Shown one piece after another: positions 10,380 to 12,195 of a stretch of 64,000 nucleotides of DNA. A program made the position numbers and the translations under genes. The first letter of the stretch is position 1, and each line of letters begins with the position of its first letter. Under the pieces are notes generated by a model that did no database searches, had not been told where the DNA came from, and saw nothing but the letters and a program-made list of their open reading frames with translations. Origin of the DNA: a phage; the sequence record PX930852.1. One strand, given 5' to 3'.

Positions 10380-10700
10380 CGGGTACTCACCAGCATCACT
10401 TAAGAGTCTTTGAAAAGGGTTTTTAAGTGATGTAATGCGTGGCTCGGTGCAGTGAAGTATGGTGGGGTAGGGTATAATATGGTGCGGTAATGTATGGGTA
10501 GTTAGTCTCAGCTACATTAAAATGAGACTTACCTTTTTAAAAGGTCTTTGGAGAGGGTCTTTTAATAAGGTCTGGTGTAGTAGGGTTGGGCATGGTACGG
10601 TCCGGTGTGGTGTGGCACGGTATGGGTGGATGGTAGTATCCACGTTAAAAATCTACCAAGTTTCTAAAGAGTCTTCTGTTGAGGGTTCTTTACAAACAAC
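10380..10700 (+). repeat. GT-rich tandem repeat array 1 (about 2 units)
   Basis: units contain leader CCTTTTTAAAAGGTCTTTnGAGAGGGTCTTTTAATAAGG, about 65-nt (GGT)-rich tract, and hairpin GTAGTTAGTCTCAGCTACATTAAAATGAGACT plus T-run. Confidence 0.7.
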
Positions 10701-10718
10701 TTAACAATCAACTAAAGT

Positions 10719-11321
10719 GTGGAGCTAAATGCTATGAAACTGTTAAATATCAAAATCACTGGTACTCGTCCTTTCTTGAGCCATAACGATACGTTGTCAG
10801 ACCCATTAAACCCTCTGACGAAATATCACAAGTCTCTGTCCAGTAAACGTAAAAAGACTGACGAAGACTATGCGCTCTTAGCAGAAAGCCAACTGGTAAC
10901 TTCTTGTTACTACGATGAGCAGCTAGGTTTTGTTATGAACGGTGAGATGATTGAGGCTTGTATCAAGTCTGGTGCAAAACTCAACAAACTTGGTAAGGTA
11001 ATTGACCGAGCCATTATGCTGACAGATGTAGTCTTCCCAATGACTATCAAGAACTGTCCAGCAAACCCACAAGAACTCGCTAAGAATCCAGACTTTATCT
11101 ATGCTAAGTCTGTTAAGATTGGTACAGCACGAGTTATGAGCTACCGTCCAATCTTCCGTGACTGGTCTGTAGAGTTTGGTTTGATGTTCGATGAAGAGCA
11201 AATCACCCGAGAGGAACTTCTGATGGTTCTGGAAAATGCTGGCAACCTTTGTGGTGTAGGTGATTGGCGTCCACGCTTTGGTCGTTTTTCTGTAGAAGTT
11301 ATTTCAGAAGGTAACGTTTAA
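10719..11321 (+). CDS. hypothetical protein (200 aa)
   Basis: GGAG RBS; first gene of a two-gene cassette flanked by GT-rich repeat arrays. Confidence 0.55.
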
Positions 11322-11323
11322 TT

Positions 11324-11764
11324 ATGAATACAAAAGCATTAGCAGCAAAGTTTAGTTACGGTGACACTGTATCACATTCTGAGATGGACACCTTCTTAGG
11401 TATTGTGAAGCCAACTTATCAAGGTGACATTGTTAAGTACGAAGATGAAATGAAGGCTTATGCACTTACACGTCTAAACCGACTTGAGAAGTTTATTGAA
11501 AAGCTTCTTAAAGAAGAGAAGATTTATCTGGTTGCTTCAATGGGTGTTGGTTATCGTGTGGTTGAACCTAAGCATCAAGCAACTATTGCAAAACGTAAAA
11601 TGTCTGGTAAGATTGGTCGTGCTTTAAAGCAAGCCACTCAAGCGATTGAGAATGTGAATACTATGGCACTTAGTCATCAAGAACGTTCACGACTGATTGA
11701 ACAGCAAAACCATTTAGCTGCTATGAAAGCTAACATTAACAAGCAACGTAGAAAACCTTTCTAA
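11324..11764 (+). CDS. hypothetical protein (146 aa)
   Basis: coupled to upstream ORF; followed by terminator hairpin at 11776. Confidence 0.55.
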   Translation: MNTKALAAKFSYGDTVSHSEMDTFLGIVKPTYQGDIVKYEDEMKAYALTRLNRLEKFIEKLLKEEKIYLVASMGVGYRVVEPKHQATIAKRKMSGKIGRALKQATQAIENVNTMALSHQERSRLIEQQNHLAAMKANINKQRRKPF

Positions 11765-11775
11765 GTTGACTAGGT

Positions 11776-11798
11776 AGCCTCTTCGGAGGCTCCTTTTT
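11776..11798 (+). terminator. rho-independent terminator
   Basis: AGCCTC-TTCG-GAGGCT hairpin followed by CCTTTTT. Confidence 0.6.
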
Positions 11799-12195
11799 AA
11801 AAGGTCTTTAAGAGGGTCTTTTAATGAGGTACGGCGCGGTTAGGTAAGGTCTGGTAGGGTAGGGTGAGGTTTGGTAAAGTGCGGGTAGTTAATCGGAGCT
11901 ACATAAAAATTCGATTACATCACTTAAGAGTCTTTAAATTATAGTCGATAGAGTATCTCATAGGGTTTTTAAGTGAGGTGTGGTAAAGCGCGGTTAGGTA
12001 TGGCGCGGTCAGGTCAGGTGAGGTTCGGTGCGGGTAGTTAGTCTCAGCTACATTAAAATGAGACTTACCTTTTTAAAAGGTCTTTAAGAGGGTCTTTTAA
12101 TAAGGTATTGTATGGTGTAGTTTGGTTAGGTATGGTTGGGTGTGGTAAGGTAGGGTATGGAAGGATGGCAGTAGCCTTATAAAAAATCTGCCAAA
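11799..12195 (+). repeat. GT-rich tandem repeat array 2 (about 3 units)
   Basis: same leader, GT-rich body and hairpin modules as array 1; exact 31-nt hairpin at 10498-10530 and 12033-12064. Confidence 0.7.

Follow-up and report, generated by a model that had tools for sequence, protein, structure and literature searches.

A GT-rich repeat locus of a Felix O1-type phage is very probably a type II VIPR system, most likely aimed at a satellite of E. coli

What are five GT-rich repeat units doing around two small genes of a phage? The units lie in the 64,000-nucleotide (nt) phage sequence PX930852.1 (the window, by which we mean the whole of that stretch), all on the + strand and in two arrays, with two units upstream of the genes (A, 10392-10530; B, 10532-10658) and three downstream of them (C, 11792-11917; D, 11918-12066; E, 12068-12193), just where the original prediction, made without database searches, had seen them. 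In our view the units and genes very probably form a type II VIPR (Viral Interference Programmable Repeat) locus, a member of the SUSP1 clade, with five vrRNAs that would silence an E. coli satellite. The element itself is already known, the locus being nearly identical to a published model system, and every sequence-level hallmark of a VIPR system is present. Two 2026 preprints, the first descriptions of VIPR (10.64898/2026.04.26.720920 and its cryo-electron microscopy (cryo-EM) companion, 10.64898/2026.04.26.720927), have superseded the earlier statement that no element of such structure was known. What we add is that Felix O1-type phages carry VIPR, along with the five guide codes of the window and their probable satellite targets.

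VIPR is defined by a minimal RAMP protein (Vipr) and an accessory gene (vap); its vrRNAs consist of 9-16 YNNGG repeats, in which GGY is conserved and NN hypervariable, and end in a 3' tail pseudoknot in the SUSP1 clade (10.64898/2026.04.26.720920). One Vipr protomer binds per repeat to build a right-handed helical filament, and in this complex GGY is flipped into protein pockets while NN is exposed (10.64898/2026.04.26.720927). The NN bases pair with double-stranded DNA, every third target base being skipped, and the resulting R-loop triplex blocks transcription (10.64898/2026.04.26.720920, 10.64898/2026.04.26.720927). Small-RNA sequencing of SUSP1 revealed transcripts of about 100 nt from units homologous to those of the window, co-purifying with Vipr; the target of the SUSP1 vrRNAs is a satellite found in E. 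coli genomes, and protection is increased by Vap1 (10.64898/2026.04.26.720920). Experimentally, vrRNA expression, Vipr co-purification and target silencing are documented in SUSP1 and P. fulva only, and it was further reported that certain vrRNAs are directed against other VIPR systems and that some satellites encode vrRNAs themselves (10.64898/2026.04.26.720920).

The two enclosed genes are the window's counterparts of vipr and vap1:

10734-11321, + strand: vipr, encoding a single-RRM Cas7-like RAMP protein of 195 amino acids, 97 % identical to SUSP1 Vipr
11324-11764, + strand: vap1, encoding a VIPR accessory protein of 146 amino acids, 99 % identical to SUSP1 Vap1

Contrary to the original prediction, which began the first gene at GTG 10719, its start is ATG 10734, as annotated in SUSP1 and relatives. 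The product is a minimal single-RRM RAMP with a G-loop and thumb, and the published GGY-contact residues are all present in it (H17, E71, M72, R138, C173, D177, W178 and R179). Because its identity to SUSP1 Vipr exceeds the >90 % criterion of the discovery preprint, the locus belongs to the SUSP1 clade. Pfam returned nothing for either gene and PHROGs only families of 'unknown function'. For Vap1, a DNA-binding fold was predicted in the discovery preprint (10.64898/2026.04.26.720920) and was not confirmed here; vap1 homologues stand directly downstream of vipr in distant loci also. By analogy with SUSP1, Vipr would polymerise on the GGY/NN repeats, which would tie the RNAs functionally to the enclosed genes. 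This link between Vipr and the RNAs had been overlooked in the first reading of the locus, as had the pseudoknot and the nature of the GU-rich tract, which is a guide whose code varies at 2 of every 5 positions.

Each unit is composed of a leader, a guide tract and a 3' tail, the tail pseudoknots being supported by a covariation test:

10392-10440, + strand: leader of unit A, type L2, inverted repeat CATCACTTAAG...CTTAAGTGATG
10441-10495, + strand: guide of vrRNA-A, 11 GGYNN repeats; NN TC GC GA AT GG AG AT AT GC AA AT
10496-10530, + strand: tail of vrRNA-A, type T1a (helices S1 GTAG/CTAC and S2 AGTCTCA/TGAGACT)
10532-10568, + strand: leader of unit B, type L1 (CCTTTTTAAAAGGTCTTTGGAGAGGGTCTTTTAATAA)
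10569-10623, + strand: guide of vrRNA-B, 11 repeats; NN CT GT AG TG AT AC CC GT GT AC AT
10624-10658, + strand: tail of vrRNA-B, type T2a (S1 GTGG/CCAC; S2 TGGTAG/CTACCA)
11792-11827, + strand: leader of unit C, type L1
11828-11882, + strand: guide of vrRNA-C, 11 repeats; NN AC GC TA AA CT AG AG GA TT AA GC
11883-11917, + strand: tail of vrRNA-C, type T1b (S2 TAATCG/CGATTA, compensatory with respect to T1a)
11918-11976, + strand: leader of unit D, type L2, with a longer loop
11977-12031, + strand: guide of vrRNA-D, 11 repeats; NN GT AA GC TA AT GC CA CA GA TC GC
12032-12066, + strand: tail of vrRNA-D, type T1a
12068-12103, + strand: leader of unit E, type L1
12104-12158, + strand: guide of vrRNA-E, 11 repeats; NN AT AT GT TT TA AT TG GT AA AG AT
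12159-12193, + strand: tail of vrRNA-E, type T2b (S1 AAGG/CCTT; S2 TGGCAG/CTGCCA)

Rather than the loose mix of GGT, GGTG and TAGG over about 65 nt that had been described, the guide tract in every unit of the window is made of exactly 11 in-register pentamers, (G/a/t)G(T/c)NN, spanning 55 nt. Across 64 unique tracts from 23 loci, positional entropy at pentamer positions 1 to 5 is 0.81, 0.12, 0.57, 1.92 and 1.90 bits, with GGY (positions 1-3) conserved and NN (positions 4-5) hypervariable; position 3 is T or C in 99 % of cases, and the number of repeats per tract varies from 7 to 18 with a mode of 11. Even between near-identical phages, 40 % of each tract is hypervariable. The repeat pattern lies far beyond chance, and GGT density, scanned on both strands across the 64 kb, has its single peak at the locus. 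The open reading frame (ORF) at 10522-10704 is a repeat artefact, as had been supposed. In support of the proposal that each unit is a gene for a small non-coding RNA, the homologous units of the SUSP1 locus, which is 97-99 % identical, yield transcripts of about 100 nt (10.64898/2026.04.26.720920).

The leaders are of two types, so that the one conserved leader of the original prediction holds for units B, C and E (L1, CCTTTTTAAAAGGTCTTTAAGAGGGTCTTTTAAT; a 34-nt leader for which 0 chance matches are expected) and fails for A and D. The latter carry L2, an inverted repeat (CATCACTTAAG...CTTAAGTGA), and the A/D leaders (CATCACTTAAGAGTCTTT...GGGTTTTTAAGTGA) have only the 3' core GGGTYTTTTAA in common with the B/C/E leader. 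A consensus promoter scan found none within the leaders, whose resemblance to -10 and -35 elements is weak. The leader motif AAGAGGGTYTTTTAA was not found in the window outside the locus, where the best matches are at chance level; as it is confined to the locus, a role as a genome-wide phage promoter is unsupported.

At the 3' end, the hairpin and T-run that had been read as a terminator of each unit form one helix of an H-type pseudoknot. The tail has two interleaved helices with 12 pairs (..((((.[[[[[[[[.)))).......]]]]]]]].....), examined in a gap-free alignment of 18 distinct tails of four sequence types from related phages. Pairing is kept in 90.3 % of cells, against 25-43 % in slid registers; 9 of the 12 pairs are changed on both sides, and the covariation score was reached by 0 of 500 shuffles. 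All four tail types keep both helices, although these represent few independent events, the phages being related. Instead of a terminator, the 3' element is a pseudoknot with covarying pairs; a consensus terminator scan found none at any unit end, the sole canonical one (11776-11791) lying just after the second gene.

We compared the NN codes of 61 guides from this phage group with ten satellite loci, out of some 570 satellite variants, and with 76 kb of flanking sequence, counting as a hit an NN match of at least 80 %. With a skip of 1 nt, 130 matches fell inside the islands and 1 in the 76 kb of flanks, whereas over the same ten loci there were 7 matches with a skip of 0 nt, 2 with a skip of 2 nt and 4 with a skip of 3 nt. 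When the order of the dinucleotides was permuted, 0-4 matches were obtained compared with 55 observed (first five loci). The skipped base coincides with codon position 3 (wobble) in 74 of the 84 matches within coding sequences, which are split 53/31 between the strands. Four of the window's guides, A, B, C and E, match the satellite at 86-95 % of NN positions. Guides A and B (19/22 each) match the satellite tape-measure gene on opposite strands, in both cases with the skip base at the wobble position. Guide C (21/22) matches the satellite of E. coli O157:H7 strain Rafaela_II in an intergenic position about 50 nt upstream of a 711-nt ORF, and the match of guide E (20/22) is promoter-proximal, about 30 nt upstream of the satellite operon's first ORF; EC45 and CFSAN029787 are examples of strains with a satellite that guide E matches. 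The best match of guide D (17/22, 77 %) is in frame in the large serine recombinase gene of the satellite. No self-target of at least 80 % was found in the 64-kb window, the best match (16/22, 73 %) being at chance level.

The satellite can be followed by a gene that it has in common with the window:

25063-25866, - strand: phage gene adjoining the tape measure, used as satellite marker; its E. coli copy, 91-95 % identical in DNA, is annotated 'phage baseplate protein'

A chromosomal copy of this gene occurs in 474 of 5,426 complete E. coli genomes, and the satellite island in 474-568 of them, roughly 9-10 %. The island is about 11 kb long; besides serine recombinases, both small and large, and an HNH gene, it contains small ORFs, a tape-measure gene of its own and the 'phage baseplate protein' copy (L032, 5100-16400; L033-L041). 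It occupies at least four integration sites (yciI/tonB, a DUF72 gene near yecN, yegS and lafU/dinB) and is often disrupted by insertion sequence elements. The satellite of E. coli APEC O18 has a tract of 10 GGYNN pentamers of its own in an ORF-free region (L039, 7828-7877, - strand), in agreement with the preprint's remark on vrRNA-encoding satellites. Taken together, the VIPR of this Felix O1-type phage is most likely aimed at a parasitic satellite in E. coli. In the mechanism that we propose, the infecting phage would silence the satellite through its VIPR guides, whose NN bases would pair with satellite DNA at the tape-measure gene and just upstream of satellite operons.

Several points weigh against this interpretation. 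Guide D has no match of at least 80 % among the ten satellites sampled, and its exact 22-base gapped pattern was not found in IMG/VR; nor did any guide of the window have a perfect match in the ten-satellite sample (best 95 %). Expression and activity in the window's phage are things that we infer from a near-identical relative, and the supporting papers are preprints. The same target data are the ground for the alternative that the locus is a genuine VIPR whose natural targets would lie wholly or partly outside the sampled satellite, perhaps in other phages, VIPR loci or host genes, the satellite matches being ancestral. It would account for guide D, which lacks a convincing satellite match, and for matches at 86-95 % instead of 100 %, and some vrRNAs are reported to target other VIPR systems (10.64898/2026.04.26.720920). 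We regard it as unlikely, since four of the five guides match one island family, in frame with wobble skipping or near promoters, and since with only 10 of about 570 satellite variants sampled better matches are likely to exist.

A peptide-pattern search with the first gene returned close relatives and six IMG/VR contigs at only 37-40 % identity. The distant vipr homologues come from GC-rich phages and prophages, and (GGC/GGT-NN)n tracts flank them too, in every case on the coding strand and in none on the opposite one. Tracts of (GGCNN)12-15 occur on the GC-rich contig L023, where they end in GGTTTTTT and are separated by unrelated hairpin spacers (3065-3350, 3823-4000), and in Rhodococcus and Xanthomonadaceae prophage regions 3-5 tracts follow the second gene. 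These distant tracts use GGC rather than GGT, with up to 19 repeats (L023; L027, 5137-5648; L026, 3053-3279), and their array architectures differ from the Felix O1 type. As distant loci combine the same gene with GGYNN tracts, the motif is GGYNN, linked to the gene family, and the repeat number is not fixed.

A rival view is that the tracts, as (GGNNN)n, act independently of Vipr through two-tier G-quadruplexes in RNA or DNA, for instance as terminators or regulators. A GG every 5 nt does fit a 2-quartet motif, as would the GGTTTTTT ends in one distant locus, but G-quadruplexes leave unexplained why position 3 is a pyrimidine (T/C in 99 %), why the tracts follow the strand of the genes so strictly, why a RAMP gene is obligatorily linked and why NN carries information; moreover, the guanines sit in protein pockets in the published complex (10.64898/2026.04.26.720927). 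We therefore hold it to be very improbable. Another idea is that the tracts are wrapping sites of a ring-shaped RNA-binding protein of fixed stoichiometry, comparable to TRAP, and serve as an attenuator or protein sponge. TRAP sites are triplets with 2-nt spacers, which resembles the layout in the window, and all five window units have exactly 11 pentamers. Yet close relatives have 7-18 repeats and distant loci up to 19, the two bases of each spacer are hypervariable and hold information on the target, the adjacent protein is a Cas7-type filament former, and a helical filament was seen by cryo-EM (10.64898/2026.04.26.720927); the variable repeat number and the target matches in effect refute an 11-mer ring, to which we give almost no credence. 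DNA-level iterons, an origin or a packaging signal, suggested by tandem, positionally conserved units adjoining replication genes such as ligase, are hardly credible, and the original prediction was right to list iterons and an origin merely as alternatives: binding sites would be expected to be conserved, yet 40 % of the tract is hypervariable between near-identical phages, the tail has RNA-type compensatory changes, and the homologous SUSP1 units are transcribed and co-purify with Vipr (10.64898/2026.04.26.720920).

Returning to the VIPR locus, two signals frame its expression:

10336-10363, + strand: sigma-70-type promoter, TTGACA-16-TATACT, 11/12 consensus; the identical element is present in SUSP1
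11776-11801, + strand: intrinsic-terminator-like hairpin AGCCTCTTCGGAGGCT with T-run in the gap between vap1 and the downstream array (called at 11776-11791 by the terminator scan)

The promoter, which had been noticed from the start and proved real, would drive the upstream vrRNA array together with vipr and vap1. Owing to the canonical terminator between vap1 and the downstream array, that array needs read-through or promoters of its own. The order of leaders and tails follows a grammar in the 23 loci examined: T2a is the tail of the last unit of the upstream array in 21 of 22 cases and T2b that of the last unit of the downstream array in 16 of 17, while T1a and T1b are internal, T1a being followed by an L1 leader and T1b by an L2 leader. 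The commonest architecture is that of the window (L2-T1a, L1-T2a / vipr vap1 / L1-T1b, L2-T1a, L1-T2b). The grammar adds a minor new observation but no new system. Biogenesis of type II vrRNAs is left unexplained in both preprints (10.64898/2026.04.26.720920, 10.64898/2026.04.26.720927), and filaments were seen to pair 3'-3' in cryo-EM (10.64898/2026.04.26.720927). Tentatively, the leaders may carry per-unit promoters, as half suggested in the original prediction, or processing sites, an idea that we entertain because the junction grammar is strict, the downstream array lies behind a terminator and the preprints are silent on biogenesis; equally tentatively, the junctions may be recombination substrates for swaps of guide units between phages, and the terminal tails could govern 3'-3' filament pairing. 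Elsewhere in the window, an ORF-poor stretch of about 1.2 kb (55550-56700) is dense in short direct repeats, CTTAACA(A/G)/CTAACAAG, and related periods of 10-31 nt (many TRF rows); candidate functions are an origin, a regulatory region or a terminal region, and there is no relation to the VIPR leaders.

On one side of the locus stands the DNA ligase gene (9079-10179) and on the other a series of small early genes, the + strand carrying them all. The region has 90-99.6 % nucleotide identity to over 200 Felix O1-like myoviruses (Ounavirinae), with Felixounavirus LF82P9 and LF82P1 as the top matches. The unit arrangement recurs in more than 100 related phages, in line with the conservation that had been expected of it, and a Vipr with 90 % identity or more to the window's is encoded by about 118 sequenced genomes. 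Depositors annotated the loci of these relatives with hypothetical proteins and automatic 'repeat_region' features, nothing more, and the Felix O1 genome paper does not mention the repeats. Rfam, at a permissive threshold, gave two chance small nucleolar RNA matches and nothing else within 9800-12800. Neither preprint mentions Felix O1 or Felixounavirus in its text; the discovery preprint has 664 representatives (10.64898/2026.04.26.720920). Between the ligase gene and the VIPR promoter, 10183-10329 holds a small hydrophobic ORF of 48 amino acids, a member of the conserved PHROG family phrog_22006 (unknown function), and 25 tRNA genes are clustered at 39799-45025 on the - strand, as is typical of Felix O1-like phages. 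GenBank GU169904.1, a 147-kb record named 'Staphylococcus phage SA1', also encodes a Vipr with 99 % identity to that of the window; this record is probably a chimeric or contaminated assembly with Felix O1-like sequence in it.

VIPR is thus standard equipment of Felix O1-type phages, which are used in Salmonella typing and biocontrol. As a newly described form of RNA-guided DNA recognition, it sets a discontinuous 2-of-5 guide code against 2 of every 3 target bases, and CRISPR RAMP effectors have been proposed to descend from it. Guide repertoires that point at a satellite family of roughly 9-10 % of complete E. coli genomes are relevant to host range in phage therapy and to arms races between phages and their satellites. 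In this sense our result extends the published work and opens no new question.

Among known systems, the trp leader RNA of Bacillus, with 11 G/UAG triplets bound by the 11-mer TRAP ring, resembles the window in its conserved triplets, its 2-nt spacers and its 11 repeats; it differs in having a fixed repeat number and an unrelated protein, and in VIPR the spacer bases carry information. The RNA of type III toxin-antitoxin systems (ToxI) likewise consists of tandem pseudoknot units beside the gene of a binding protein and is phage-associated. Its units, however, are identical, 36 nt long and cleaved by their own toxin, an endoribonuclease, whereas those of the window are about 125-150 nt long, contain a hypervariable internal code and have a RAMP as partner; no toxin signal turned up for either gene in PADLOC or Pfam, where none was sought. 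In class 1 CRISPR-Cas, Cas7 proteins (Csm3/Cmr4/Csf2) form a filament on CRISPR RNA with a 6-nt period and one base flipped, compared with a 5-nt period and three bases sequestered in VIPR. The VIPR guide is discontinuous and reads 2 of every 3 target bases; no Cas5, Cas6, Cas10, Cas11, Cas1 or Cas2 is involved, and the system is phage-encoded, its 'array' being one of whole guide units, not of repeats and spacers. A class 1 CRISPR-Cas system in the window was rejected: TRF output contained no CRISPR-type array, Rfam gave no CRISPR-DR match in 9800-12800, the arrays enclose just a single RAMP gene and a small accessory gene, and the period is 5 nt.

The closest system is the type II VIPR of Escherichia phage SUSP1. 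The two have in common, besides Vipr (97 %) and Vap1 (99 %), the synteny of ligase, vrRNA, vipr, vap1 and vrRNA array, the promoter, both leader types, the four tail types, the GGY/NN repeats and the 3' pseudoknot, and they target the same satellite family under the 1-nt-skip rule. SUSP1 differs in having four vrRNAs (1 + 3) instead of the window's five (2 upstream, 3 downstream) and in belonging to the genus Suspvirus instead of Felixounavirus. All five guides of the window have 11 repeats, and their NN codes differ entirely from those of SUSP1, so that the target sites differ as well.

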